DNA from: a virus
Taxonomy: Duplodnaviria; Caudoviricetes
IMG/VR virus record: IMGVR_UViG_3300028833_000061
Location: 32,001 to 96,000 of that record
DNA length: 64,000 nucleotides
Strand: one strand, 5' to 3'
The notes beneath the pieces are model-generated. The model had not been told where the DNA came from. It was given only the letters and a program-made list of their open reading frames with translations, and made no database searches. The translations under genes were made by a program, and so were the position numbers. Positions 1,472 to 41,634 of the stretch are shown here, one piece after another; the first letter of the stretch is position 1, and every line of letters begins with the position of its first letter.

Positions 1472-1500
1472 AGTATTGCATAGCGCCCCTTGAATGTCAA
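1472..1500 (-). promoter_or_regulatory. sigma70-like promoter TTGACA-17-AATACT, with the -10 inside a GGGCGC/GCGCCC inverted repeat
   Basis: minus strand TTGACA TTCAAGGGGCGCTATGC AATACT. Confidence 0.55.
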
Positions 1501-1917
1501 ATGATTTTTTCATGGGCCCGATTCGGATTTGTCGTCTACTCTCTTGAACGCTGTTGCAGTGGGGGAGCTCGAGGGGCTTGCCCCTCGTGTTATACGATCC
1601 CCATCAGCGGTTAACGAAGTGGTCGCTGATGTGTCCTTCGTAAGAAGGCAGTGTAACCAGTGTATAATGGCAGTGACCACTACAACACTACAACCGTTGT
1701 TCTGTTGTACAGTTCAACACTATAACAGTTAGGATTTTCAGATGCTCGATCAGAAAATCGTCTTTTTAGTACCCTTTTCGCAGATTTTTGGAAACAAAAA
1801 GTAATGACTTCGACGTACAGACCAGTCAAAAACCTAGTGTTTTGAAGGGTGCATACCGTCGTACACACTACTTATTTTTTCCGTGCATATAACCGCTACA
1901 AGATCAACAGTTAAAGC

Positions 1918-1944
1918 AAAAGCCCCCGGTGTTACCCGGGGGCT
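1918..1944 (-). terminator. intrinsic terminator
   Basis: AGCCCCCGG/CCGGGGGCT stem followed by TTT on the minus strand, just after the stop of 1958..3091. Confidence 0.8.
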
Positions 1945-1957
1945 CTGCTACAGAGAG

Positions 1958-3091
1958 CTAATCCTCTCCGTCAGGTGACGAGAAGTCATCCAGGCCTTGC
2001 AGCCTGAAGACTTCGCCAACGGTGATACCGCCAGCCTTAGGAGCCTCCTTGCGGATATCCCTTGGGACGAATCCTATTCTGCACCAGTAGTGCAGCGGCT
2101 TCTTCGGGTCTCCAAACGACAGGTTGCGCAGATCCTGGGCGTCGTTCACTGAGAATGCAGAGAACTCCTGGACTGCAACGCACACGTCGTCGACACGTCC
2201 TGAATCCAATGCAGTCTCGTACAGACACACATTGAGCTGCGGATTCTGCGTCTGGATGCGATTGATGGCCATTATAGATGGATCGACTCCTTCCACGTCA
2301 AACGGGACCGGCTCCCCTTTCTTTTCTCTTGAGATGTCGATAATAAGCGGAGCTATCATGGAGAACTTTTTAGGAGTGTCGCTCAGCTGCTCCATCTTGA
2401 TCGAATCCTTTATCATGGACTCCCAGGTGGAAGACCACACAAGGTCACGATCGGAGAGCCTCCACCTCTGTGCGGAGATCCACTTTAGTTGCTGGTGGCA
2501 GCGAGGACACTCGACATCCATATCTGTGAGATCCTTGAGCCCTTTGATGACAGTCTTCTCGTCGCCCTTATAAACCGCTACAGTGCGCTTCATATTCTTG
2601 CCGTTGATTTCCGTCTCGATTTCCTTGTTCACCGTGTTGGCGAACAGGACATCTTTGACGGTACGCACGATTGTGCCGCAACTCGGGCAGTTGCACCTCG
2701 CCGACGGTACGCTGACAAGACAAGGTCCACGAACCAAACTGACTCGCACTTTCCCTTCGAACTTGCTTTCCTTCGTCTTCTCGTCGTAGGTATAGCGCTC
2801 GAATTCGAGCTTTCTACGGGGACACGTAAGAACAACCTCATGGACGCTGTAGTCTTCGGTTTTGGAAGAGACGACGAGGTATCCTCTGATACCGGCTCCC
2901 TCGCTAGTCTCGACATGGAGCTTGCCCTTGGAATCTTTCGCCGACCGGATGTCGGTAAAGCCAAGATGACGAACTCCCTTATCTGCTGAATCGCTTCCTG
3001 GATACTTGCTATAAGGCATCACAAGGCAGCATGTAGCAGGCCCATGGTCCTGCAGGAACCCGCCAGGTTGGCGGTTCTTTTTGTTTTTCAT
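1958..3091 (-). CDS. hypothetical protein with zinc-ribbon motifs (CPSC, CPRC)
   Basis: 377 aa ORF with an A/C-rich leader (CAAACAAAAACAAACAAAAATG) and its own terminator. Confidence 0.75.
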   Translation of the reverse strand: MKNKKNRQPGGFLQDHGPATCCLVMPYSKYPGSDSADKGVRHLGFTDIRSAKDSKGKLHVETSEGAGIRGYLVVSSKTEDYSVHEVVLTCPRRKLEFERYTYDEKTKESKFEGKVRVSLVRGPCLVSVPSARCNCPSCGTIVRTVKDVLFANTVNKEIETEINGKNMKRTVAVYKGDEKTVIKGLKDLTDMDVECPRCHQQLKWISAQRWRLSDRDLVWSSTWESMIKDSIKMEQLSDTPKKFSMIAPLIIDISREKKGEPVPFDVEGVDPSIMAINRIQTQNPQLNVCLYETALDSGRVDDVCVAVQEFSAFSVNDAQDLRNLSFGDPKKPLHYWCRIGFVPRDIRKEAPKAGGITVGEVFRLQGLDDFSSPDGED

Positions 3092-3114
3092 TTTTGTTTG
3101 TTTTTGTTTGCACT

Positions 3115-3188
3115 CTCAGCCTAACCTAGAGAAAGCTGCCACGGCTAAGAAGGATGACAGCCCGGGAGAATGCTAGGTTACATCTCCC
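3115..3188 (-). ncRNA. putative structured 5' leader (four interlocking helices)
   Basis: pairings TAACCTAG/CTAGGTTA, GCTGTCA/TGGCAGC, GGGAGATG/CATTCTCCC, CTTAGCC/GGCTGAG; the mismatches are G-U pairs on the minus strand. Confidence 0.45.
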
Positions 3189-3218
3189 AATTAGTTATAA
3201 CGCAATTAGTTTGTATAA

Positions 3219-3452
3219 TTACGGCATGACAAGCCTGCCGGGTCGTGTTCTTCCGTTATACTCGTAATAACAACCCGTGGCGGCGTGTCTTTCATTTTCG
3301 GTGTAAAGATATTCGATAGGATCCTCTTCGATACATTCGCTTGCAGGAAACTTGTAACCCTGGTTTCCTACAAGCGCCTCGTGCTTCATGTTCATCATCA
3401 GGCATAATTGATGACGCTGTGCGTAATAGTATATTCTTCCGGCCTCAATCAT
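3219..3452 (-). CDS. small ORF at the distal end of the array (membership weak)
   Basis: MIEAGRIYY...ENER; overlaps the preceding ORF. Confidence 0.55.
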   Translation of the reverse strand: MIEAGRIYYYAQRHQLCLMMNMKHEALVGNQGYKFPASECIEEDPIEYLYTENERHAATGCYYEYNGRTRPGRLVMP

Positions 3453-3672
3453 AGTAGAATGGCTCCATTTCGAAACCGCACCATCGCGTGTGGTTTCTTT
3501 CCTCCTCGAACGGTTTCCTGTTCAAGGTTCCAGTAAGCACAAACAGCCTGTCGTAGCTCGAGATCCATTTTGTACGCACTAGAAGAATGTTCGATGCACC
3601 GTAGCGCTCTGCGTTGTATTTGTATACTGCCTCTCGCAGCTTTGACATGTCGTCTCTAGATGACTTAATCAT
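3445..3672 (-). CDS. array small protein (paralogue of 3665..3898)
   Basis: MIKSSR...KPFEEER...GFEMEPFYYD. Confidence 0.75.
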   Translation of the reverse strand: MIKSSRDDMSKLREAVYKYNAERYGASNILLVRTKWISSYDRLFVLTGTLNRKPFEEERNHTRWCGFEMEPFYYD

Positions 3673-3898
3673 AGAACGGCTCCAGCGCGAATCCGTGTCC
3701 CTTTGTAAACATCCTTTCCTGTTCGAACGGTTTTCCGCTGAGAGAGTTGGACAGCACGTATGAGCGTCTGTTGCTGAACACGTAGCTGAACATCCACGCG
3801 GGATGTATCAGAACGTTTGCGCACCTATTTCTAGAAGCGGCGAATTTATAGAACGCCTCGCCCAATATCGAAAATTTCTGCCTTGACGCCACCATCAT
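3665..3898 (-). CDS. array small protein
   Basis: MMVASR...KPFEQER...GFALEPFYD. Confidence 0.75.
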   Translation of the reverse strand: MMVASRQKFSILGEAFYKFAASRNRCANVLIHPAWMFSYVFSNRRSYVLSNSLSGKPFEQERMFTKGHGFALEPFYD

Positions 3899-4137
3899 CT
3901 CGTCATATCTATGCCTGTGAACACGTATCTTGAACTTGCATCGAACCTGCGCTCGTTAGGGCACAGCATGCAGTTCTTGAGAACAGTCTTAGGACTGTAC
4001 GGACCATAGTGCGGAGGACTATAAGGAGAAGGATAGTACTTTCTTCCCATCCTAAGACCAGGATATGCCAGCTTTGTGATGCTGTCGTGGGCCGCTCGCA
4101 TCATCTCTAAGTAATGCCTTGCATCTATGTGTCTCAT
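3895..4137 (-). CDS. array small protein
   Basis: MRHIDARHY...CPNERRF; ATGA overlap. Confidence 0.65.
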   Translation of the reverse strand: MRHIDARHYLEMMRAAHDSITKLAYPGLRMGRKYYPSPYSPPHYGPYSPKTVLKNCMLCPNERRFDASSRYVFTGIDMTR

Positions 4138-4403
4138 CAGTAGAATTGTTTTGATCTTTTACTGCCTGGATACCAGGCACCGAGACCGCAGATCGAACAA
4201 CCGTTGATGTCGTTATCTCGTTCAGCTCTGAACGGATGTGTATTCCTTAGAACGCCTTCAGGGTCTATTGGGCCATGTATAGTATTACCGAACAATCCAA
4301 GACTAGTAGGCCCAAGATGAAGGTACGGCGATACGATCTTGTCCACCGCTATGTATGTAGATTCCAGTTTTTGTTCAACATACCATCGCGTAATCCATCT
4401 CAT
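4137..4403 (-). CDS. array small protein
   Basis: MRWITRWY...HPFRAER; AGGAGG Shine-Dalgarno upstream. Confidence 0.65.
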   Translation of the reverse strand: MRWITRWYVEQKLESTYIAVDKIVSPYLHLGPTSLGLFGNTIHGPIDPEGVLRNTHPFRAERDNDINGCSICGLGAWYPGSKRSKQFY

Positions 4404-4411
4404 ACAACCTC

Positions 4412-4609
4412 CTATCTTCCGTACGCCCATCCTGAGCTGTTCACACGTCTTTCGACGTTGAACGGATGGACTATCCTGTCCTTGTCGTTGCCTACCGTGT
4501 TCCGTCGTCTGATCTGACCGAACTTGAGCAGGAGTTCAGTGTTGTCCCGATATATCATTCCAAGCCACCTGAGCTCTCCTGCAAGGCACCATCTTTTGAT
4601 TCTGCTCAT
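4412..4609 (-). CDS. array small protein
   Basis: MSRIKRW...HPFNVERR; ATGA overlap. Confidence 0.65.
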   Translation of the reverse strand: MSRIKRWCLAGELRWLGMIYRDNTELLLKFGQIRRRNTVGNDKDRIVHPFNVERRVNSSGWAYGR

Positions 4610-4839
4610 GAGAATATGCAGTCCATACTCTCTGCGCTGTATCTGTGCTTCACGTGCGGGAAATGAATATGGAAATTGAATATCTCTGCACGCTCGTCGT
4701 GCATAGGCCTGTAGTCAGGCCATGCTCCAGTGAGCGCGAATGGATTCATCAGAAACCAGTGCTTCAACTCATCTACGCCATACATTAGTGAGGCGTATTT
4801 AACGTGCAAGTAGTACTCGCTTCTGTATGCTCGTTTCAT
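4606..4839 (-). CDS. array small protein
   Basis: MKRAYRSEY...RPMHDER; start set at the ATGA overlap 4836-4839. Confidence 0.65.
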   Translation of the reverse strand: MKRAYRSEYYLHVKYASLMYGVDELKHWFLMNPFALTGAWPDYRPMHDERAEIFNFHIHFPHVKHRYSAESMDCIFS

Positions 4840-5084
4840 GCTAGTTGTATCGGCTTGTAGCGCTCTCCGGCGAAGAACCAGGTCTTGAGCTTGTCGTTCC
4901 AAGGATACTTGTAGATCCTCATGAACTGCTGGCGCTCCGTCTTCACCGGGTTGTGTATCGCTGCTGGCATGATTGGATACCTGCATCCGTCGAACTCCAA
5001 AAGCGTTTGTTCGCAGAAGGGTATGACTTCTATTCTAGTCAGCCTCTCCTGCTGGAACAGAAATCTCCTGGTTATACCAACCAT
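4836..5084 (-). CDS. array small protein
   Basis: MVGITRRF...HNPVKTERQQF. Confidence 0.7.
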   Translation of the reverse strand: MVGITRRFLFQQERLTRIEVIPFCEQTLLEFDGCRYPIMPAAIHNPVKTERQQFMRIYKYPWNDKLKTWFFAGERYKPIQLA

Positions 5085-5094
5085 CTGATTCCTT

Positions 5095-5343
5095 TCAGTT
5101 GAATTGTCTTATGTCGAAGCATCCGTTCTCGAACCAGCAGTACGGCCACTCCGCTTCTCGATCCCCCTCCATCTTTTTACGTATATATGAAGCAAAGTGG
5201 CGTCTTTCAGCATTGAACGGATGTCTTGTGATGGCCGGGATGGTGTCGGCTGGAGGCTCTATTATAAGATATGCCTGCCCGCTTACTCCACGAGGACAAA
5301 ACCTGTGGACGTAATTGAAGAAGCCCCTGTCTGATTTAATCAT
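5095..5343 (-). CDS. array small protein
   Basis: MIKSDRGF...RHPFNAERRHF. Confidence 0.7.
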   Translation of the reverse strand: MIKSDRGFFNYVHRFCPRGVSGQAYLIIEPPADTIPAITRHPFNAERRHFASYIRKKMEGDREAEWPYCWFENGCFDIRQFN

Positions 5344-5573
5344 AGGCAGAGCCTCATTTCACGTTTGGCATGCCCGGTGTAAACGAAGTCATATGCGTAC
5401 GTAACCGCAATCCTGAATGCCCTGCGCTCGTATCTGATGAAATCCCCGATCATGTGCGAATCCTTCTCCGGCCATCTGGCAGGAGGTATACGCATCAGGG
5501 CCATCTCGTTCCACTGCTCGCGCCTGACGTATCCAAGCTGCCAATTCCACGTCTTCCTTTCAAGGCCGATCAT
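5340..5573 (-). CDS. array small protein
   Basis: MIGLERKTW...FIRYERRAF. Confidence 0.7.
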   Translation of the reverse strand: MIGLERKTWNWQLGYVRREQWNEMALMRIPPARWPEKDSHMIGDFIRYERRAFRIAVTYAYDFVYTGHAKREMRLCL

Positions 5574-5797
5574 TTGAACTTGCCTCTAAGCTTTCCGCAC
5601 AGCGGCCCGTATACGTGGCCGCCGTGTATCTTCTGCATCTTAACGCCGGCACGTTCGTCGTTCATCGGATGGTACGGGTCGCCTCCCATCCAGTAGTCCT
5701 CTTCTGGCCACAGGCATTTCCTGTCAAAGCGTCTTGCTGCATCAAGCCGCGTAATTCTGTATGCCTGAAACAGATACTTCTTCTTCAGGTAAATCAT
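5570..5797 (-). CDS. array small protein
   Basis: MIYLKKKY...HPMNDER...FK*. Confidence 0.7.
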   Translation of the reverse strand: MIYLKKKYLFQAYRITRLDAARRFDRKCLWPEEDYWMGGDPYHPMNDERAGVKMQKIHGGHVYGPLCGKLRGKFK

Positions 5798-6021
5798 TTA
5801 AGATCCTTTGTGTTGTATGTCATTCCGCACACCCTGTAAAATTTGTTCAATGTCCTGTAATGCAGTCTTTCATATGTCTCAGGTTGCGGGAATATCGGTA
5901 GCATGTAAGTATTTTCGTTTCGATACGAGTTTCCGAAATACGTCCTGATTATCTCTATTCTGCTTGTGTTGAATACCGAGTGGTACGAACGGTACAGCCT
6001 TTCTCTCGATGCGAATATCAT
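5794..6021 (-). CDS. array small protein
   Basis: MIFASRERLY...PQPETYERLHY...LK*. Confidence 0.7.
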   Translation of the reverse strand: MIFASRERLYRSYHSVFNTSRIEIIRTYFGNSYRNENTYMLPIFPQPETYERLHYRTLNKFYRVCGMTYNTKDLK

Positions 6022-6045
6022 TCAAGCCTCCTTGCCAGCCCAGCC

Positions 6046-6231
6046 TCATCTGAACATCGACAACCGTATAGGATTTACACGCTCTTGCTCGTAAGGACGC
6101 CAATCGAACATTGTACGAGACAAGTACGGTGCCCTGCTGTATCCGAATACCGCAGGCGCCCTCTTGAGATCGTATGTTGCAAGAAGCGCCCTGTGATTGC
6201 GTGCGTGTATGTATCTTCTTGACGTCTTCAT
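6046..6231 (-). CDS. array small protein (triplet subfamily)
   Basis: YDLKRAPAVFGYSRAPY...DWRPYEQER...FR*. Confidence 0.7.
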   Translation of the reverse strand: MKTSRRYIHARNHRALLATYDLKRAPAVFGYSRAPYLSRTMFDWRPYEQERVNPIRLSMFR

Positions 6232-6404
6232 TTGAACCAACCTGCGTGCGCACGCCTGTCTGCGTCGAACGGACGCCAGTCGACAATCGTTGCGATTCTA
6301 GGAACCTTGTCGAATCCGAAGAGGTACCAGCTCTTTTTCCAGTCATACGATATGACTAGCGACTGGTGATACCTGCGGTGGATGTGCCTTCTTGCCAGCC
6401 TCAT
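6228..6404 (-). CDS. array small protein (triplet subfamily)
   Basis: MRLARRH...YDWKKSWYLFGFDKVP...DWRPFDADRR...FK*. Confidence 0.7.
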   Translation of the reverse strand: MRLARRHIHRRYHQSLVISYDWKKSWYLFGFDKVPRIATIVDWRPFDADRRAHAGWFK

Positions 6405-6583
6405 TTGAACGTTCCGTCCATTCTTACGCAGATTCTTTCGATACTCTGTGGCCTGTAGTCCCTTAGCATACTGATGTAAGGCACTTTGTCGTACCCAAAT
6501 ATGACGGGTGCGTTCTTGACGTCGCATGACCACATCATCCACCTTAGATACATGTGGTATGTGCGTCTTATTGCCAGCCTCAT
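6401..6583 (-). CDS. array small protein (triplet subfamily)
   Basis: MRLAIRR...DVKNAPVIFGYDKVPY...DYRPQSIER...FK*. Confidence 0.7.
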   Translation of the reverse strand: MRLAIRRTYHMYLRWMMWSCDVKNAPVIFGYDKVPYISMLRDYRPQSIERICVRMDGTFK

Positions 6584-6801
6584 TTGTACCTCGACACCCT
6601 ATACGTTGTTCCACGGAACACAGCCCAGCATTCATGCCGTCTCTTCGCCTCGGCAAGCCTGTCTCTCTCGTCTCTTACAATGTGTTTCGGATACGAGTGG
6701 TGGTTTGGTTTGATTCTAAGTTTTGCGCAAGAATCGTAATCAACTACGCCAATCTCCCAGTTAAGCTCATGTCGATACATATACCTTTTGAAGTTTATCA
6801 T
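6580..6801 (-). CDS. array small protein
   Basis: MINFKRYMY...HIVRDER...YK*. Confidence 0.7.
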   Translation of the reverse strand: MINFKRYMYRHELNWEIGVVDYDSCAKLRIKPNHHSYPKHIVRDERDRLAEAKRRHECWAVFRGTTYRVSRYK

Positions 6802-7040
6802 CTGTACTTAAGGTAGTATTCCTCGTCATTCTTAGGCGCTCCCGGATCTATACAGTTTATATATCCAAATGTTCCGTGAATAGCCTCCCAGCGCTCAGCT
6901 CTGAACGGCCTGTAAGGATTTATAATGTGCGCATCGTTGTACAGCCTTAGCTTCGTCTGTGAATTCCAATTGCAGTCACTTGTATACTGAAGGCTGTCGT
7001 GCAGCTTTCTATGCCAATTGATTCTAGTAAGCATTATCAT
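6798..7040 (-). CDS. array small protein
   Basis: MIMLTRINW...RPFRAERW...YR*. Confidence 0.7.
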   Translation of the reverse strand: MIMLTRINWHRKLHDSLQYTSDCNWNSQTKLRLYNDAHIINPYRPFRAERWEAIHGTFGYINCIDPGAPKNDEEYYLKYR

Positions 7041-7267
7041 TTGAAGTCGCTCACTCTCCTTAGTATGCCGTCGTACCAGAACCATCGATGGTCTGTACGA
7101 AACGAATCCCGATAAGCCGAGCAATTCAGGCTCTCACGTTCGCCGCACGGAGCATTGTCTATGTACGTGAACGTCCTGGACGGATCCTGCAAATGTGCCT
7201 TGCACAAGTCAAGATCCTTGTATCCATAGAATCCACGAGTGTATCTTGGTCTTGTGTAGCCTATCAT
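7037..7267 (-). CDS. array small protein
   Basis: MIGYTRPRY...APCGER...FK*. Confidence 0.7.
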   Translation of the reverse strand: MIGYTRPRYTRGFYGYKDLDLCKAHLQDPSRTFTYIDNAPCGERESLNCSAYRDSFRTDHRWFWYDGILRRVSDFK

Positions 7268-7470
7268 ATGTAGTTACCTGGTGATATGTTGTGGGTCTTA
7301 ATACTACAAAAGTGATCCCTTTCGTACGTCACAGGATTCGGATGCCACGACGGTTCGTTCAAAATCAGGATGCTCCTAAGGCCCAGCTTGAATTCATCGT
7401 CCTTCTTGTTCGTTATACTCCTGAAGTATCCAAGCCTGAACGCGTACCCGCGCCTACGCCATACGATCAT
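7264..7470 (-). CDS. array small protein
   Basis: MIVWRRRGY...PNPVTYERDHF. Confidence 0.7.
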   Translation of the reverse strand: MIVWRRRGYAFRLGYFRSITNKKDDEFKLGLRSILILNEPSWHPNPVTYERDHFCSIKTHNISPGNYI

Positions 7471-7676
7471 GAGTCATAGCGGAATGGCCACAGCTTGAGG
7501 CGGTGTTTCCGCAGCTCTTCCTTGTTCTTGAACAGCACGCGCTCGTCCTCGGTAGGAGTCCAGTTGGAATATGACTTGTACTGATCGACGATGTACGCCG
7601 CCTCGCACGTGCACGGCTTTCTTTTTTTCTCGGTCTTTAACGCGGCGAAATATTGCCATCTGCTACAGTTTATCAT
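7467..7676 (-). CDS. array small protein
   Basis: MINCSRWQY...TPTEDERVLF. Confidence 0.7.
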   Translation of the reverse strand: MINCSRWQYFAALKTEKKRKPCTCEAAYIVDQYKSYSNWTPTEDERVLFKNKEELRKHRLKLWPFRYDS

Positions 7677-7861
7677 TTGTATTGGTACAGGTCATGATGC
7701 CACTGGAATCGTAGCCGCTCGTAATATATTACGCCCGGCAGGTGAATCTTGTAGGACTTCTTTGTAAGCAGATCCAGAAGTTCCCGATCGTTGATGTTTT
7801 TCGTGGATTCGTTGGCTTCCTTCAGGTCGACAAGATAGTCCCATCTGTTGTACTTTATCAT
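7673..7861 (-). CDS. array small protein
   Basis: MIKYNRWDY...PGVIYYERLRF...YK*. Confidence 0.7.
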   Translation of the reverse strand: MIKYNRWDYLVDLKEANESTKNINDRELLDLLTKKSYKIHLPGVIYYERLRFQWHHDLYQYK

Positions 7862-8106
7862 GTGAACATGCTCGTAGGTTTCCACCTTATCCACGAGCCG
7901 GCCATAAGCAGCCCGCATCTTCTGCGGTATGCATCATCGTCGATAGCTGCATTTAGATACTTGCGCTCTTCGCTGAATATGTCCTTTGGCGGTATAACAC
8001 TGACGAATCTGGAACACTTGTGCCTCTCTATCGCATAGTCGCTTTCTATGTGCCTTCCCTCGAACAAGAAGTCTATTTCATACTTGTGCCTGGTGTAGTT
8101 GATCAT
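7858..8106 (-). CDS. array small protein
   Basis: MINYTRHKY...PPKDIFSEERKY. Confidence 0.7.
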   Translation of the reverse strand: MINYTRHKYEIDFLFEGRHIESDYAIERHKCSRFVSVIPPKDIFSEERKYLNAAIDDDAYRRRCGLLMAGSWIRWKPTSMFT

Positions 8107-8330
8107 TTAAATATGCTCCTTGAGATCCACTCGTCGTATAGTCCGAGGGCAGGAAACCAGCCGATGACACGCATCCTTTCGTAGACCCTTATGAATTCCG
8201 TCCTCTCGTACCTGTCCGGGTATGGCGCGCTTGGCATACTTATGTGGTCTATATTCCACTTAAGGTCGACACGCTCGCACAGTGCAATCTCGTAGCCCTC
8301 GTAGTAACGTCGCCTGCTTACGTTGATCAT
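8103..8330 (-). CDS. array small protein
   Basis: MINVSRRRY...PYPDRYERTEF...FK*. Confidence 0.7.
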   Translation of the reverse strand: MINVSRRRYYEGYEIALCERVDLKWNIDHISMPSAPYPDRYERTEFIRVYERMRVIGWFPALGLYDEWISRSIFK

Positions 8331-8539
8331 TTTATCAAGTCCATCCAGCAGTAATTGCCGTAGAACCACAGGCACGGCTTGTCGGTGTGTACCATAGAGT
8401 TCAGCCTGCGTCTCTCGCTCTTGTCTGGATTTTCTTCTATGTATCTTTTTCCTCGCGTAGGCCACGACACGTGACTGCAGTAGTATTTCACTGTATTCTC
8501 GTGACCGGTCAAGTAGGATGCTCTGTGAATGTTGATCAT
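8327..8539 (-). CDS. array small protein
   Basis: MINIHRASY...NPDKSERRR...IK*. Confidence 0.7.
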   Translation of the reverse strand: MINIHRASYLTGHENTVKYYCSHVSWPTRGKRYIEENPDKSERRRLNSMVHTDKPCLWFYGNYCWMDLIK

Positions 8540-8781
8540 CTTATGTCCCTATAATTTACATCGTACGCACGCACAGACAGAGGAGGCGGCGGCGAAACAT
8601 GCAGGTACGCGATCATGTCATTGTATCCGTGGATCCTGTCCCTCTCGTAGCTGTCTGGCTTTCCAGGGAACCTGAAAGTTCCAAAGTCATAGAATTCACT
8701 GTCGAACAGACGAGGATGTGCCCTGCTTCTGATGACCATTTCAAGCATGTCCAGGTACTGTTGCTTTCCGAAGTTTATCAT
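8536..8781 (-). CDS. array small protein (close paralogue of 8778..9005)
   Basis: MINFGKQQY...RAHPRLFD...GKPDSYERDRI...IR*. Confidence 0.8.
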   Translation of the reverse strand: MINFGKQQYLDMLEMVIRSRAHPRLFDSEFYDFGTFRFPGKPDSYERDRIHGYNDMIAYLHVSPPPPLSVRAYDVNYRDIR

Positions 8782-9005
8782 CTTATTTCGTAGTATCCTA
8801 CCTTGTACATCCTGACAGACAGGTCAAGCCTGCAGTTGATCCTGTTGTATGTGTCGATACGGCTCCTCTCGTAACTATCAGGCTTTCCGGTAAACGGACC
8901 ATGACCAACATCGTATAATCCGTAGTCGAACAGGAAAGGATGCGCTCTGTTGTAGTTGAGAGCCTTCAGCATTCCACAATACTGTCGCTTGCCAAAATTG
9001 ATCAT
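8778..9005 (-). CDS. array small protein
   Basis: MINFGKRQY...RAHPFLFD...GKPDSYERSRI...IR*. Confidence 0.8.
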   Translation of the reverse strand: MINFGKRQYCGMLKALNYNRAHPFLFDYGLYDVGHGPFTGKPDSYERSRIDTYNRINCRLDLSVRMYKVGYYEIR

Positions 9006-9214
9006 CTGAACATGCGCAACGGTGTGCGGTAGATGTACTTAGGTTGACTGTAGCTATCGATAAGCCTTCTGTGCCGAAGCCTCTCGTCGTAAGGAGGATT
9101 GTACCTAACCATGAAGTATTCGCCATTCCGCGGGAATACGCTCTCGGGCTGCATGTTCTTCACGGCCGCCCTACGGTAGCACTCGACATGCCATCTGCGT
9201 ATAGTAAGACTCAT
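9002..9214 (-). CDS. array small protein (paralogue of 9211..9423)
   Basis: PESVFP...RYNPPYDER...FR*. Confidence 0.7.
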   Translation of the reverse strand: MSLTIRRWHVECYRRAAVKNMQPESVFPRNGEYFMVRYNPPYDERLRHRRLIDSYSQPKYIYRTPLRMFR

Positions 9215-9423
9215 ATCAGCATACTCCTGAAATCGAATCCGCGTATCCATCGTTCATGAGTATGGTGCTTGTTTGCCCCGTACACAATCTTCCGCTCCCT
9301 GTCGAACGGATTGTACCTCGAATACGCACATTTAAACTTCTTTGGAAACAGCGAATCGGGTTCTGCGCTTCCGCGCAGTTCCTTGAAGAAGTAATACCAC
9401 ATGTATCGGTATTCGCGTATCAT
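9211..9423 (-). CDS. array small protein
   Basis: MIREYRYMW...PDSLFP...RYNPFDRER. Confidence 0.7.
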   Translation of the reverse strand: MIREYRYMWYYFFKELRGSAEPDSLFPKKFKCAYSRYNPFDRERKIVYGANKHHTHERWIRGFDFRSMLI

Positions 9424-9674
9424 CTTAGATTATCCATGTTTACTCTAGAGTATCTGAATCTGCCAAATCTGCCGAGCTCGATCCGTCTGCTCTTGAAATA
9501 TCTAAGCTGTGTTCTTTCGCTGAACACCGGATCTTCCTCGAGTATCCAATGCCTTGACTCTGGAATCTCGAACATGTGTTTTAACTCAGGTGCAGGAATA
9601 AGGTCCTTGTTCCTGCTGTCGAAGTTGGCACCGCGAAGTCCTAGCTCGTAGCTTATCCTGCCGACGTGTATCAT
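9420..9674 (-). CDS. array small protein (paralogue of 9671..9919)
   Basis: MIHVGRISYELGL...RNK...LEEDPVFSER...LR*. Confidence 0.75.
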   Translation of the reverse strand: MIHVGRISYELGLRGANFDSRNKDLIPAPELKHMFEIPESRHWILEEDPVFSERTQLRYFKSRRIELGRFGRFRYSRVNMDNLR

Positions 9675-9919
9675 CGTATGTTCTCCGCGGATACTAGGAG
9701 TCCTCTTATGTTGGCCCGGTCCCAGCCACGCACTCTGAAAAGATAGTCTATGCGCTCCCTCTCGTGCCACACTGGATCTTCCTCCAACGGAAACGGTCCT
9801 CCGCCCCATATAGCATCTTCACCCAGCCCTTTTGGCTCAGGCATTACGCTCTTGTTCCTGCAGTTGTATACCGTGTCGCAGAGTCCCATGTCGTAGCTTT
9901 TTCTGCTTACTCCTATCAT
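9671..9919 (-). CDS. array small protein
   Basis: MIGVSRKSYDMGL...RNK...LEEDPVWHER...IR*. Confidence 0.75.
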   Translation of the reverse strand: MIGVSRKSYDMGLCDTVYNCRNKSVMPEPKGLGEDAIWGGGPFPLEEDPVWHERERIDYLFRVRGWDRANIRGLLVSAENIR

Positions 9920-10203
9920 CTGTATACCTCGAACTTTATGCCGTCCCTTCTGTGAAGAGCCCGGCTGATGCCGGCCGCTTCGAACAGCGCAATGCGCAAT
10001 CCGCTCATTGCATTGAGACAGTTCAGGTAGCCACGCACGCCCTTGGATATTCGATACATCTTGAACAGCTTCCTTTCGCTGTCGTCGACACAGCATCTGT
10101 ACGGGCCGTTGTCGACTGTACCGTTGATCTGGTTGTTGTAGGCGTCGTGCGCCAACTCGAGGCAGGTGTAGAACTTGTCCCTGTTCCAAATCTTGCTAAG
10201 CAT
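9916..10203 (-). CDS. array small protein
   Basis: MLSKIWNRDKFY...DDSERKLF...YR*. Confidence 0.6.
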   Translation of the reverse strand: MLSKIWNRDKFYTCLELAHDAYNNQINGTVDNGPYRCCVDDSERKLFKMYRISKGVRGYLNCLNAMSGLRIALFEAAGISRALHRRDGIKFEVYR

Positions 10204-10576
10204 CGTCTCTTCTCCCGTATCTGGACAAAAGCGCATACCAGTGCATGTTGGTTATCGTGCCAAGCGCGCATGCGCCCAGTTCCGGCAGCATGTCGTACAG
10301 CATCACGTCCTTGTACTTCTCATAGTAGTACTTGCGAGAGTAGTCTCCGTCAATCGGAGGATTCCACAAGGATCTCAGCCTGTGAAACCACGCGCACGCT
10401 CCGGGATAGTACGTCCTCTCAGAGTGCAATCCTAGCAGATCGACCACATCCACCTTGCGGCTGTACCACTCGCCTTCTCTGCCTGGATGCTGATACATGA
10501 ACGTCTGTGAGTTGTTCCTGAGTATCTTTAAATTTTCCCAGTCGACGTCGTACCTGCGCCTTGTGTACCCAAGCAT
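10196..10576 (-). CDS. array protein (longer member)
   Basis: MLGYTRRRY (compare MIGYTRPRY, MINYTRHKY)...HSERTY. Confidence 0.65.
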   Translation of the reverse strand: MLGYTRRRYDVDWENLKILRNNSQTFMYQHPGREGEWYSRKVDVVDLLGLHSERTYYPGACAWFHRLRSLWNPPIDGDYSRKYYYEKYKDVMLYDMLPELGACALGTITNMHWYALLSRYGRRDDA

Positions 10577-10998
10577 CAGCACAGCTCCTTCCACAAGTTT
10601 GTCCTGAATCTGAACAGCTTTTCAGTGAAGCTCGGCCGAAGTCCAGGCGTATACTGAAAGTCGTTCATCAGTGCGTTCACGAGCCTGGACATGTACGATG
10701 ACGGGCACGGCATAAGTCCAAGATGCCCGGCCTTTCTTCCTCTGCCATAGTCGTATTCGTCGAAGCAGCTGCTCGTGCAGAATCGCTCTTCGTCGATGTC
10801 CATAAATCCGGTAAGCTGATACGTGCTCACTGAATGGCAGTCACGAGGATCGAACGATCCAAAGTAGTTCGTGCCAAGCTGTATAACCGACATCCCGAAA
10901 TCGAACGACTGCCCCCTGAGAAGACATTCGTCGTGGAACAGCCGCACGCAGGCCATGTCTGAAACAGTCTTCCAGTAGAGTTGTCTTTTGTTCCTCAT
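10576..10998 (-). CDS. first ORF of the array (longer member)
   Basis: MRNKRQLYW...DIDEERF; stop overlaps the next start. Confidence 0.6.
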   Translation of the reverse strand: MRNKRQLYWKTVSDMACVRLFHDECLLRGQSFDFGMSVIQLGTNYFGSFDPRDCHSVSTYQLTGFMDIDEERFCTSSCFDEYDYGRGRKAGHLGLMPCPSSYMSRLVNALMNDFQYTPGLRPSFTEKLFRFRTNLWKELC

Positions 10999-11006
10999 TG
11001 TGAAAA

Positions 11007-11130
11007 GCAATCAGGGCCCGAGGATCGGCTCTAACGATCATCTCGGCTCCCAAGACGTGTTTTTAGTTCCAGGCGCCACCCATTAAGACGCCTGCCCACA
11101 CGGGCTTTAAACTACACGGGCCCTGATTGC
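11007..11130 (-). ncRNA. putative structured RNA closed by a perfect 14 bp terminal stem
   Basis: GCAATCAGGGCCCG...CGGGCCCTGATTGC; internal hairpins GCCC/GGGC, CAGGCG/CGCCTG and GATCG-TTAGAGC-CGATC. Confidence 0.55.
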
Positions 11131-11133
11131 AAA

Positions 11134-11207
11134 TGGAGCGACGTGCGGGAGTCGAACCCGCCTGACTAGCTTGGAAGGCTAGGACCCAGCCGCTAGGCCA
11201 ACGTCGC
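11134..11207 (-). tRNA. tRNA-Gly(TCC)
   Basis: cloverleaf; anticodon arm CTAGC-CT-TCC-AA-GCTAG; GGTTCGACTCC T-arm; encoded CCA. Confidence 0.93.
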
Positions 11208-12324
11208 ACTGTGTTTTGTTAATAGCCGCCGCTTCTCGTCTGCGCTTTCTGCCGAATTTGTTTCGACCCATCCATGTTGGAGATTGCGAGTCGCAGTTTG
11301 GACAGACAAGCCGGATATTTTCAATGACGTTATTATCGGCGTTTCCGTCGATGTGGTCAACTATAAGCGTCAAGTGCTTGCCGTTCCATTTGCTCCTTCC
11401 GCATATTGCGCATTTGTATCCGCTTGTTCTAGATATATAAAGAACAACTTCTTCACGCTTTATCTCCTGTCCTTGTTTGCTGAAGTATCCTCTTTCCTCT
11501 ACTTCCTGTATAACAATTTTCTTTTTATATTCATTGCAACACGCATGTGAACAGAATTTTTGGTCGCTATAGTGTTTTTTGCGTACAAATTCTTTTCCGC
11601 AATTAAGACATGTCAAGTGAGCCTTTTCAAATCTATCACTTAACAACTTTGAGGCACATGCACGAGAGCAACATACTTGCTCACATCCTCTGCTAAATGT
11701 TCTCTTTTTAAATGTTTTTCCGCATACAGGACATGTTCTAACTAGATCAGGGCGCCGTATTCTCCAGTCAACAATCTTTTTATGGCGTTGTTTCATAGTT
11801 TCACTAAGAACTTTACCCCAGCACTTCGAAGAACAATAAGTCTGACGTACCCGGCCATGAAAACTCTTTCCGCAAACTGGGCATATTTTATACAGACGCT
11901 TTCCTTTACATGCACATCTATGGCTACAGTATATGTGTCCTTCCTGGCTGATTTTTCTTTTATAAGCCAGTTTTCCTTTTGTTACGAAGAACTTTTTACC
12001 ACATGTCGGGCAAGTTACTTCTACCCGTGCTGCGTTTTTTCTTGCTTTGCATCCGCATTTTGGACTGCAATACACATGGCCACCTACGTTATTTTTGATA
12101 GATACTTTCAGCTTTCGTGCAGATATTAGAAACTTTTTACCACAGGTGTGGCACACAGCTTCTACGGTGGCTGCAATTTTTTTAGCTTTGCCAACACATG
12201 CTCTGCTGCAATATACGAAGCCACCAGCATTTCTTGTGGCCGCGCGTTTAAGTTTTTGCTTTTCTATCAGAAACAACTTGCCACAGGTGTGGCACGTAGC
12301 TTCTACGAAGTTATTTCCACCCAT
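11179..12324 (-). CDS. HNH endonuclease with ~6 N-terminal CxxC...(Y/F/C)CSxxC zinc-finger (TRASH-like) repeats; probable free-standing homing endonuclease
   Basis: C-terminal LIVDHIDGNADNNVIENIRLVCPNCDSQ; repeated VEAxCHTCGKxF...YCS modules; visibly AT-richer than the flanks; lies between tRNA genes. Confidence 0.88.
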   Translation of the reverse strand: MGGNNFVEATCHTCGKLFLIEKQKLKRAATRNAGGFVYCSRACVGKAKKIAATVEAVCHTCGKKFLISARKLKVSIKNNVGGHVYCSPKCGCKARKNAARVEVTCPTCGKKFFVTKGKLAYKRKISQEGHIYCSHRCACKGKRLYKICPVCGKSFHGRVRQTYCSSKCWGKVLSETMKQRHKKIVDWRIRRPDLVRTCPVCGKTFKKRTFSRGCEQVCCSRACASKLLSDRFEKAHLTCLNCGKEFVRKKHYSDQKFCSHACCNEYKKKIVIQEVEERGYFSKQGQEIKREEVVLYISRTSGYKCAICGRSKWNGKHLTLIVDHIDGNADNNVIENIRLVCPNCDSQSPTWMGRNKFGRKRRREAAAINKTQCDVGLAAGS

Positions 12325-12355
12325 TGCTTAGATTGAAACATTGGTTGAAAAACTA

Positions 12356-12428
12356 TGGAGTCTATGGGAGTCGAACCCATTAAAACCTGCGTGCAAGGCA
12401 GGCGCACCAACCGCTATGCGCAGACCCC
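12356..12428 (-). tRNA. tRNA-Ala(TGC)
   Basis: anticodon arm CCTGC-CT-TGC-AC-GCAGG; G3:U70 Ala identity pair present. Confidence 0.92.
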
Positions 12429-12434
12429 GTAAGA

Positions 12435-12519
12435 TGGCTCCAGAGACAGGACTCGAACCTGTAGTTGCTTTCGCCACGGATTAACAATCCGCTGCCATAC
12501 CAATTAGGCTGACTCTGGA
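12435..12519 (-). tRNA. tRNA-Asn(GTT) with long variable arm
   Basis: CGGA-TT-GTT-AA-TCCG; extra arm GGCGAAAGCAAC; G73 and CCA. Confidence 0.9.
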
Positions 12520-12537
12520 ATAGGTGGAACGGCGCCT

Positions 12538-12565
12538 ATAGTATCACAGCGCCGTATCCAGTCAA
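12538..12565 (-). promoter_or_regulatory. sigma70-like promoter for the tRNA/HNH/array transcript
   Basis: TTGACT-16-TACTAT with extended -10 TG; -10 lies inside a CGGCGC/GCGCCG inverted repeat. Confidence 0.65.
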
Positions 12566-12669
12566 CTACTTTCTGTGATCCTTGCCGTCGCAGCCGAGCG
12601 CCACAATAAGCGCAACGACCATACCGACGACGACTATCACGTAGACTGCTACATCGTGCATCGCTTCTT

Positions 12670-12891
12670 TTATACTTCGGACATGCGATTGACGTCGTCG
12701 ATCAGAGCGCCTATAGCCACCAGAAGATATCTCACGAACGTAGCATCCGTGCACTTGTTGCCGTGGCTTTCAAGATACGCACGTGCTTCCGTTAGCATGT
12801 CGTATGCCTTGGACGACGCTACGTACCGAAGGTTCTTCTCTGTGAAGAACTTCGTCAGAGTGTCGTAGGCCTTCTTTGTGTCCTCATCCAC
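12670..12891 (-). CDS. hypothetical protein
   Basis: 73 aa ORF with GAGGAGG upstream. Confidence 0.55.
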   Translation of the reverse strand: MDEDTKKAYDTLTKFFTEKNLRYVASSKAYDMLTEARAYLESHGNKCTDATFVRYLLVAIGALIDDVNRMSEV

Positions 12892-12935
12892 GAGAGATCC
12901 TCCTCTTCGTCGTACATTTCCTCGTCAACTTCCAT

Positions 12936-13742
12936 CTAGACCTCCACGACTGTATTGTACCAGTGAGACGTGTCAAGCACTTCCGGGAACTTGTCCGGAT
13001 AGCCCCAGGTCATACCGTGATATCCGACAGCGTTGCGAATATAACGAACTCCGTCGATGGTCTGGTCATCGAATCCGTGCGAGTGTCCCCAGATCCAGAG
13101 ATCCGGCTTCAGGTCGGTGAACGAATCGTCACACACGCAATACGTAGCGTTAAGGCCGAAGTACTTGCCATCGGCAGAGATCTCGTCAGCATATCGATCT
13201 GATATAAGCTCCTTCCGAGGGCCGGTATGCGTAACAATGACTCGCTTTAGGCCTTCGTACTGTGCATACTTGTCCCGGATCCACTTGGCGCATTCCCTGA
13301 AGTATTCGGTCTGCGTCCTTGCCGACCATCCCTTGATCCAGTTGAAGTCGTTCATACCCTGCTCGACGATCCAGCCGTCACGTTCGTTTATGTCCAGAGG
13401 CGCCCAGGCCGACACGCCGAATATCGCGACATCTCCGTCGACGACATCAATGTACTTGGCATCCTTCGCCTTAGGCGCCTTATTCTGGTTAGCGAACCGC
13501 ATAACCGTGTTGTTTCCCCACAGATCGTGGTTGCCCTCGATGGCCAGGACGTCCTTGAACTTGTCGGATGTCCTCTCCTTGAGCTCCTTGTACACCTTTT
13601 CCCAGGTGCTCTTAAGCCCGAGGTCGCCTGCAACCACAAGATAGTCCGCAGGCTCCAGCTGGTCAGGATCGAATGTCTCCCATACGACCTTTCCTGCCTT
13701 AAGATTGTTCCTGTGTATGTCCGATATGATGTTAAGTCTCAT
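12936..13742 (-). CDS. calcineurin-like metallophosphoesterase
   Basis: ISDIH, AGDLG, GNHD, VTH, WGHSH motifs. Confidence 0.9.
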   Translation of the reverse strand: MRLNIISDIHRNNLKAGKVVWETFDPDQLEPADYLVVAGDLGLKSTWEKVYKELKERTSDKFKDVLAIEGNHDLWGNNTVMRFANQNKAPKAKDAKYIDVVDGDVAIFGVSAWAPLDINERDGWIVEQGMNDFNWIKGWSARTQTEYFRECAKWIRDKYAQYEGLKRVIVTHTGPRKELISDRYADEISADGKYFGLNATYCVCDDSFTDLKPDLWIWGHSHGFDDQTIDGVRYIRNAVGYHGMTWGYPDKFPEVLDTSHWYNTVVEV

Positions 13743-40314: not shown

Positions 40315-41634
40315 TCATTCGTCCTGGTCGAAGTCCTCGCGCATGAAATCCTTCGTCTTGCGCTTTGGCTTCGTATCCTCCTGTTCCTGTTCGTCCAGGT
40401 CAGGAGGTCCCTCATAAGACTTCTCCCAGGAATGGCCGAATCCGCGGATTCGCATCTTCTCCCTGCATGACATAAGCAGGTCTTCGTTGTCATAGAACGC
40501 ACGCACGAACTCCTCCTCGTTGGCGAACGACGGCTGAGTCTTGTCGCGCAGAGCAGTACACGTTATTCCGTGTGAATGCTTGTAGCACTCGTACGGTTGT
40601 CCGTTTGCGTCAAGCAACGCGTGCGTCTTCGACTTGAACGGCGAATTGGCCGAATTCAACAGAAAATCGGCATCCGTGTGAATCATGTCGAAACCGTCCG
40701 TGTTGGACAGATACAGATCGATGCTGCGGTAGCGCGGGCTCCACTTGTTCTTGAACGTGGACAGATGCAATACGTCTCCCAGTTCCTGGCCCTTCGCCTT
40801 GTCATACCACCTGGATGCGTTGCCGAAATCGATGCCGAAGGTGCTGTAGATGCCGATCGCCTCCGCGGCAATCGACGTCTTCTTCGGCCCGGCCATCGCC
40901 GCCATTCCAGTCTCGATCTTCACCGTCTCCTGAGTTGTAAGGAACAGGGCCGTCTGCGTCGTCCTGAACCGCTGCACGCGCGAGGAGAAGAACTTTCTCA
41001 TCGCTCTCGCGGTGCTGCCTATTCCAGTGACCTTTCCGACGTCGATGACGTCCTGCTCCGCTTCCTTCTCGGATGCCAATGCCGACAGCGAGTCTATTCC
41101 TATTAGAATGGGACACTCGCAATCCTTGTCGACCGGCTCTGTGAATTTCGTCTTTATGCTTCTGCCGAGCTCGCCTACCATGCCGCCGAAGCCGCCGCGT
41201 ATCTCGCAGATGAGCGTGTCCACTTGCGACAGCGCGTCGTCAAGCGAATTGCTCTCCACCTGCAGCAGCTCGTTCGGATTCGCGCCGATCATCACGACGC
41301 GATCCGCAGGCATTGGCGCTCCCTCGGTCTCGATATGGAAGCAGAATGCATTGCTCTTCTTCTGGGCCGCTCCGTACTGAAGATACATGTACGAAGACTT
41401 GCCCTTCGAATAAGTCGCTCTCAGCTGGGTCACACGTCCCGCTATGAACCCTCTGGCCCCTATGAACCACTCCTGGGAGATGGTCGGCAGGCCTGTCTTA
41501 GGGTCGCAGAAATCGAGGTACCGCACATTCTTCATCATATCGGAAGCGGTCTCGATGCCCGTGTTGTTCTCTGAGAGCCTTTGTATCAGCGCCTGCATCT
41601 TGGATACAGGCAGCTCCTTCTTTCTTGGACTCAT
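40315..41634 (-). CDS. RecA/UvsX-like recombinase
   Basis: GFIAGRVTQLRATYSKGKS (degenerate Walker A), IETEGA, IGIDSLSAL, FKNKWSP. Confidence 0.8.
   Translation of the reverse strand: MSPRKKELPVSKMQALIQRLSENNTGIETASDMMKNVRYLDFCDPKTGLPTISQEWFIGARGFIAGRVTQLRATYSKGKSSYMYLQYGAAQKKSNAFCFHIETEGAPMPADRVVMIGANPNELLQVESNSLDDALSQVDTLICEIRGGFGGMVGELGRSIKTKFTEPVDKDCECPILIGIDSLSALASEKEAEQDVIDVGKVTGIGSTARAMRKFFSSRVQRFRTTQTALFLTTQETVKIETGMAAMAGPKKTSIAAEAIGIYSTFGIDFGNASRWYDKAKGQELGDVLHLSTFKNKWSPRYRSIDLYLSNTDGFDMIHTDADFLLNSANSPFKSKTHALLDANGQPYECYKHSHGITCTALRDKTQPSFANEEEFVRAFYDNEDLLMSCREKMRIRGFGHSWEKSYEGPPDLDEQEQEDTKPKRKTKDFMREDFDQDE

Follow-up and report, generated by a model that had tools for sequence, protein, structure and literature searches.

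How does a phage come to carry some thirty small, related genes in an unbroken row, and is that row still growing? The question is raised by a locus in the virus record IMGVR_UViG_3300028833_000061 of IMG/VR (Duplodnaviria; Caudoviricetes), of which bases 32001-96000, a stretch of 64,000 nucleotides (nt) called the window here, were analysed. The window is part of a single contig of 201,401 base pairs (bp). Near its beginning stands a series of short genes whose products carry two common motifs:

3219..9919, minus strand: core array of 30 tiled paralogous genes, each encoding 58-88 amino acids, with the motifs MIxxxRxxY and P-x3-4-ER

An earlier note on this DNA read the array as a place of ongoing gene birth, where recent duplications diverge rapidly as in an arms race. 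The evidence assembled below favours a different history. It is likely that the array is an old multigene family of one phage lineage, which grew by tandem duplication and whose copies have been kept individually, and that it is now changing by contraction and fusion, not by birth. The array genes are named by window coordinate (e.g., 8536 and 8778).

Architecture of the array

Successive genes overlap by 4 nt (ATGA) at 26 of the 29 junctions. At the three non-overlapped starts, a GGAGG-like ribosome-binding site precedes the ATG:

4404-4411, minus strand: junction at the start of gene 4137
5085-5094, minus strand: junction at the start of gene 4836
6022-6045, minus strand: junction at the start of gene 5794

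Many of the overlapped starts have GGAG 9-13 nt upstream, within the tail of the gene before, and the junctions follow the approximate consensus T-T/A-C-A-R-ATGAT. Inside the array, neither promoters nor terminators stood out above chance. The array is a single operon of about 30 small, head-to-tail, translationally coupled genes.

Alignment of the array proteins shows the N-terminal MIxxxRxxY followed by P-x3-4-ER, with an invariant Arg and nearly invariant Glu and Pro. Because most pairs of members are undetectable in pairwise comparison (median shuffle Z of 0.36), common ancestry was tested with hidden Markov models (HMMs), each built leaving out a member together with its close relatives and ranked against the 2519 open reading frames (ORFs) of the genome. 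The held-out member came first among the 2519 in 18 of 30 cases and within the top 9 in 28 of 30. No further copy of the family was found elsewhere in the 201,401-bp genome.

Relatedness of neighbouring genes

The relatedness of pairs was assessed by blastp, by shuffle Z and by hhalign with profiles enriched with orthologs, and these methods agree. They were applied to the groups that the earlier note had listed as closer subfamilies:

8536..9005, minus strand: 8536/8778; Z 42, hhalign 99.8%, 57% amino acid and 61% nt identity; strong, the closest pair
3445..3898, minus strand: 3445/3665; Z 27, hhalign 98%, 45% amino acid identity; strong
6046..6583, minus strand: 6046/6228/6401; Z 15-20, 32-40% amino acid identity; strong; the shortest members, 58-61 amino acids
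9420..9919, minus strand: 9420/9671; Z 16.5, hhalign 98%, 34% amino acid identity; strong
9002..9423, minus strand: 9002/9211; Z 4.7, hhalign 54% over 24 columns; weak but above background
4606/5570, not adjacent: Z 7.9, hhalign 68%; weak but above background
4836/5095: Z 3.3, rank 35 of 435 pairs, hhalign 1.4%; not supported

The first four groups hold as strongly related subfamilies (Z 15-42), while 9002/9211 and the non-adjacent 4606/5570 rise above background as weak pairs. The grouping of 4836 with 5095 does not rise above the family background; beyond the family-wide P..ER, the two proteins share only PA-x4-P and one F. The weak pairs 8103/8327 (Z 7.4), 4412/5095 and 3895/4137 were missing from the earlier list. 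The similarity at the DNA level that the same note had described for 8536/8778 holds, though weakly (69% over 168 nt by blastn), and this is the only pair that blastn detects. Duplication of a three-gene block (4412, 4606 and 4836 against 5095, 5340 and 5570) was also considered and is not claimed, as the pair scores behind it are weak.

Six of the eight best pairs are adjacent genes, whereas only about 7% of pairs would be expected to be adjacent, and the observed score of adjacent pairs was reached in none of 20,000 permutations of the gene order. In a tree of the triple and its orthologs, 6046 and 6228 are sisters (support 100/99) and 6401 lies outside them. Since neighbours are the closest relatives and the triple is nested in this way, we conclude that the array grew by local tandem duplication of single genes, and on this point the earlier reading of nested duplications is borne out.

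Age of the duplications and ortholog sets

The duplications are not recent. The codon alignment of 8536 and 8778, at 61% nt identity, gives nonsynonymous and synonymous substitution rates (dN and dS) of 0.41 and 1.84, and the other pairs have dS values of 1.4-3.0 or values that could not be computed; such values are saturated, which argues against the recent origin proposed in the earlier note. The ortholog sets lead to the same conclusion. Exact look-up in a public protein collection found 29 of the 30 array proteins, and 28 of these 29 share their ≥90% identity cluster with relatives that differ in sequence (JGI, ENA, NCBI and Logan contigs). Gene 6046 is alone in its ≥90% cluster, its orthologs being 78-81% identical. 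Overall, ortholog identities range over 70-99%, in metagenomes from the gut of sheep, goats and cattle.

When the related groups were placed in trees together with their orthologs, the orthologs of each paralog formed a separate clade with support of 92-100. The sets of 3445 and 3665 separate in this way, as do those of 8536 and 8778 (support 100/100, with a branch of 0.97 between them). Paralogs are separated by branches of 0.97 to about 2 substitutions per site, which is 5 to more than 50 times the depth within clades, where tips measure 0-0.19; the monophyly is partly built in, as the tree groups were partly defined by clustering, whereas the ratio of branch lengths is not. All visible duplications are older than the divergence of the strains sampled from sheep, goats and cattle.

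Constraint on the individual copies

Each copy is also maintained as a gene. Where goat and bovine contigs have insertions or deletions inside the 30 array genes, the net change preserves the frame (24, 78, 90 and 222 nt, and compensated small shifts), and lengths are kept among up to 14 distinct orthologs per gene. Variable positions among orthologs amount to 16% at the N-terminus and 12% in P..ER, compared with 24-34% elsewhere. The well-supported single-nucleotide polymorphisms (SNPs) inside array genes number 14, of which 6 are synonymous and 8 non-synonymous. In one goat contig, three listed proteins differ by 7 amino acid changes in total, and the nt changes in their genes are put at about 23, an estimate obtained by allotting 36 contig mismatches by gene length and not by counting. 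The substitutions look purifying. Moreover, in three more distant relatives the flanking 377-amino-acid gene is 69-76% identical, compared with 79-97% for the array genes linked to what are apparently the same contigs. Rapid divergence in the manner of an arms race, as the earlier note had it, therefore finds no support in the kept lengths, the in-frame changes, the SNP counts or the comparison with the flanking gene. Some members do vary more than others between strains; the mean pairwise identity of orthologs is 81% for 8536 and 92% for 8778.

Content of the array across strains

Contigs from a goat-gut run (X5) and a bovine-gut run (X9) are collinear with the array, at 2-12% nt divergence:

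Array, most pieces: 2-6% divergence in goat X5, 3-5% in bovine X9
Array, 8.2-10 kb: about 6% in goat X5, 12% in bovine X9
Flank, 1500-3004: 1.1% in goat X5, 2.8% in bovine X9

The promoter-proximal part of the array (8214-9999) thus stands out in the bovine run, at about 12% compared with 3-5% for most of the remaining array. This could reflect faster evolution or recombination with a divergent block of alleles.

Orthologs of many members are linked to the same few contigs (15 members to a contig of 13,433 nt, 14 to one of 25,434 nt, 10 to one of 19,751 nt and 9 to one of 7,264 nt), and those of 6046, 6228 and 6401 are all linked to a contig of 1320 nt. This suggests that whole arrays are common to related phages. 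Parts of the window that were uncovered in single runs were not counted as absent. Neither the 212 related proteins nor the contigs of four runs contained an additional copy peculiar to one strain, so that the gene birth described as ongoing in the earlier note is not seen in this material; deletions and fusions are the only changes of this kind that were observed.

Deletions and fusions between units

Three places in the array are altered in other strains:

7694..8822, minus strand: about 1129 nt missing in a strain variant (protein P0064)
5460..5599, minus strand: about 140 nt deleted in a second variant (protein P0114)
6810..7031, minus strand: body of gene 6798, which a contig from the bovine gut skips or replaces (X9 joint of 6809 to 7032)

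The metagenomic protein P0064 (67 amino acids) follows gene 8778 to residue 61 and then continues with DLYQYK, the unique C-terminus (last six residues) of gene 7673. The implied deletion takes out genes 8536, 8327, 8103 and 7858 and most of 7673, and restores the frame. A contig of 2351 nt is linked to orthologs of 6401, 6580, 8778 and 9002, which span 2814 nt in the window and therefore fit into it only with a deletion of this kind. P0114 (106 amino acids, from an ENA contig of 1460 nt) consists of residues 1-66 of 5570, one Tyr and residues 39-77 of 5340, and keeps both ER motifs. At the joint in the bovine contig, deletion and divergent replacement of 6798 are indistinguishable. Smaller changes were also seen, namely a frameshift just before the ER motif in one allele of 6046 and an altered tail in two alleles of 3895.

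At the larger deletion, whose junction is the only one mapped, both sites in the window carry the same 7 nt, GACCTGT. An identity this short points to illegitimate rather than homologous recombination and argues against a need for RecA-type homology, although the earlier note had named the phage's own RecA and Rad50 proteins among the possible drivers; we infer that illegitimate recombination at short stretches shared by the units produces the deletions. The idea of unequal recombination remodelling the array, put forward in the earlier note, is thus upheld in one respect, by two chimeric genes (8778/7673 and 5570/5340), and fails in the other, as these are cases of loss and fusion without any gain.

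Properties and possible function of the array proteins

The array proteins are basic, with isoelectric points mostly of 8.6-11. Compared with the long ORFs of the phage, they contain about twice as much Arg, Tyr, Trp, His and Met, and Ala, Val, Gln and Thr are scarce. In both AlphaFold models obtained for them, a long N-terminal helix precedes another that begins at the motif proline, and the proline of P-x3-4-ER would cap this second helix. On the basis of these models the array proteins may, with low confidence, be described as two-helix proteins.

No significant match to them was found in Pfam, PHROGs, PADLOC or the PDB sequences, and the ESM Atlas gave no usable lead. A Foldseek search of the models against BFVD returned nothing at E ≤ 0.001, a result that carries no weight given the low confidence of the models. 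A profile search of 1.84 billion representative proteins yielded 7 matches, all of them orthologs of window members, and judged from these sequences the protein family is confined to one phage lineage. Among RNA families, Rfam found none other than tRNAs in the window. In a sheep-gut metatranscriptome (RNA library run X3), contigs over 1500-13000 match most of the array and its flanks without differences, which is compatible with expression.

A constant two-helix scaffold with variable surfaces would suit a set of small binders used early in infection, in host takeover or counter-defence; we offer this as a tentative suggestion. More speculative by a little is a fuller version, in which the array would supply some 30 small, basic, two-helix binders, each retained against a particular host or defence target. 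Termination-reinitiation would yield them in near-equal amounts, and deletions and fusions of units, as in the two chimeras, would try out new specificities in the population.

Alternative explanations

The sequence of events that best fits these observations begins with single genes repeatedly duplicated next to themselves, which built the array. Each copy has been kept as a separate gene, with its own orthologs and with conserved length and motifs. In some strains, deletions between units have left in-frame chimeric or fused genes; these deletions would arise by recombination at short identities, so that the visible change would be contraction and fusion. The earlier note offered instead a genomic accordion, in which unequal recombination keeps producing copies today and an arms race drives them apart quickly. 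Such a process would account for neighbours being closest relatives and for the existence of unit-level recombination products (P0064 and P0114), and the 12% divergence of some members between strains, like the greater variability of 8536 beside its sister 8778, is in keeping with it. It is nevertheless improbable, since even the closest pair reaches only 61% nt identity, with saturated dS, the copies have their own orthologs in separate clades, the strains show deletions and fusions and no extra copy, and the substitution patterns look purifying.

It has to be asked as well whether neighbours resemble each other through gene conversion and not through later duplication. Adjacent tandem copies are the usual substrates of conversion, and a RecA-like gene lies at 40315-41634. 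However, conversion would leave local stretches of high nt identity, of which there are none (at best the 69% over 168 nt noted above); similarity is evenly spread along the pairs, and in the trees sister paralogs stay distinct in all strains, so that this explanation is very unlikely. Hardest of all to credit is the proposal that the ORFs are not functional genes, being decaying duplicates or a non-coding repeat that stays open by chance. The family has no homolog, known domain or confident fold, and the 6046 allele frameshifted before its ER motif might be taken for decay, but 30 frames are tiled with exact 4-nt overlaps and with ribosome-binding sites where the overlap is lacking, lengths are kept across the orthologs, indels are net in-frame and the motif positions are the most conserved.

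Several points weigh against the reading of an old family whose copies are individually kept. For other strains, copy number and order are read from short contigs, proteins and contig nt sizes, and contigs in the protein tables are told apart by nt size alone (at 1065 nt there are two different contigs). Most of the orthologs were drawn from clusters at ≥90% identity, so that conserved alleles are favoured in the sets, and about a third of the members have three or fewer cluster mates. The dN/dS values of roughly 0.1-0.4 derived from the SNP sample and the goat contig are rough estimates, and the 12% bovine divergence at 8.2-10 kb means that some members may evolve fast. As to the proteins themselves, the two AlphaFold runs, made with paralog and ortholog alignments, gave helical models of low confidence (predicted local distance difference test, pLDDT, of 56 and 61), and the X3 contigs do not prove transcription, carried-over DNA being possible.

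Flanking genes and the phage genome

Three longer genes at the head of the operon were ranked by the same leave-out test:

9916-10203, minus strand: leave-out rank 5
10196-10576, minus strand: leave-out rank 1
10576-10998, minus strand: leave-out rank 501

Gene 10196, which hhalign aligns with 7037 at 61% probability, is probably a family member with a C-terminal extension; membership of gene 9916 is doubtful, and gene 10576 gave no family signal in this test. At the opposite end, the last array gene (3219-3452) is called in several other metagenomes from an internal Met, giving 59-60 amino acids compared with 77, and the family N-terminus may be lost or unused in this unit of some strains. 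Other genes of the window include the following:

1958-3091, minus strand: Cys-rich protein of 377 amino acids, adjoining the array on its downstream side; without a Pfam match and with only four clusters of homologs, at 69-100% identity
11179-12324, minus strand: HNH endonuclease of 381 amino acids with repeated zinc-ribbon motifs, between tRNA-Gly (11134-11207) and tRNA-Ala (12356-12428)
45250-48015, minus strand: family-A DNA polymerase with an N-terminal domain of the uracil-DNA-glycosylase superfamily and a 3'-5' exonuclease domain

The HNH endonuclease gene may be a strain-variable homing endonuclease insertion. The body of the gene has no cover in the goat and bovine runs, and a contig of run X11 connects 11200 to 12356 with 12 other letters between; this contig could come from another organism. 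A further X11 joint, of 1587 to 11146, was taken as spurious, as one of its sides has only 25 letters.

The window encodes 13 tRNAs, a DnaB-like helicase, a superfamily 2 (SF2) helicase, a Rad50/SbcC-like ATPase and a calcineurin-type phosphoesterase. Together with the polymerase and the RecA-like protein, these identify the source as a large tailed-phage genome. Its DNA is present in gut runs of sheep, goats and cattle from 12 studies. Among GenBank phages there was no DNA match to the window in either near or distant mode, and the DNA polymerase is less than 25% identical to any GenBank phage record. Queries with array members, the DNA polymerase, the 377-amino-acid neighbour and the phosphoesterase found no relative in IMG/VR, JGI metagenomes or GTDB genomes, the sole GTDB match (L001) being a chance match of 13 residues.

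Comparison with known systems

Genomic accordions consist of near-identical copies that arise and collapse within passages, the amplification of K3L in poxviruses being the case reportedly described by Elde and colleagues in 2012. The array resembles the poxvirus case in having tandem copies of a small viral gene and inter-unit recombination that changes copy number. It differs in that no two copies are near-identical (at best 61% nt in codon alignment and 69% over 168 nt by blastn), the copies are fixed across strains and only contraction is seen. The multigene families (MGF) 110 and 360 of African swine fever virus (ASFV) lie at the genome ends and have a role in host range and interferon evasion. 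They too are old, diverged tandem paralogs that are kept individually, with strain-specific deletions and fusions inside the array, yet they belong to another virus realm, encode much larger proteins and differ in their genome-end location. The internal proteins of phage T4 number 3-5 copies and have an N-terminal capsid-targeting sequence with a protease site ending in Glu. The array proteins are likewise diverse and small with a short conserved N-terminus, but they have a second conserved motif in mid-protein and 30 copies rather than 3-5, and their alignment holds no conserved Glu cleavage motif after MIxxxRxxY.

The locus separates two ideas that are often merged, that a gene array arose by tandem duplication and that it is expanding now. 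An array of this kind can be of great age, its genes each stably inherited in the phages of three ruminant hosts, and still be trimmed and fused by inter-unit recombination. Large phages set aside several percent of the genome for orphan families of tandem genes. The 30 natural variants on one small scaffold, with two natural chimeras, form a set for binding or toxicity screens once a host has been identified.

The closest precedents are found in jumbo phages. Phages G and 121Q carry tandem arrays of more than 30 genes that were read as tandem duplication (Hua et al., 2017, PMC5646251), and Bacillus phage G has an expansion of zinc ribbons to about 35 copies (Iyer et al., 2021, PMC7824862). 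A jumbo-phage tandem family is recognised by 20 or more adjacent same-strand paralogs of common ancestry, by confinement to one phage lineage and by a genome of about 200 kb or more, and the present locus shows all three features, with 30 members in a contig of 201,401 bp; as in G and 121Q, some 30 tandem paralogs of a small, lineage-restricted protein lie on one strand of a jumbo-size phage genome and are read as tandem duplication. In contrast to the zinc ribbons of phage G, the array proteins lack a zinc-ribbon Cys pattern, match neither Pfam nor PHROGs, and form an unrelated family. The copies are also so diverged that most pairs are undetectable, whereas "very similar genes" are described in G and 121Q (Hua et al., 2017, PMC5646251), and the phage is an uncultured one of the ruminant gut. 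The array is thus an orphan case of the jumbo-phage tandem arrays already reported, while the accordion model fails where it calls for near-identical copies.

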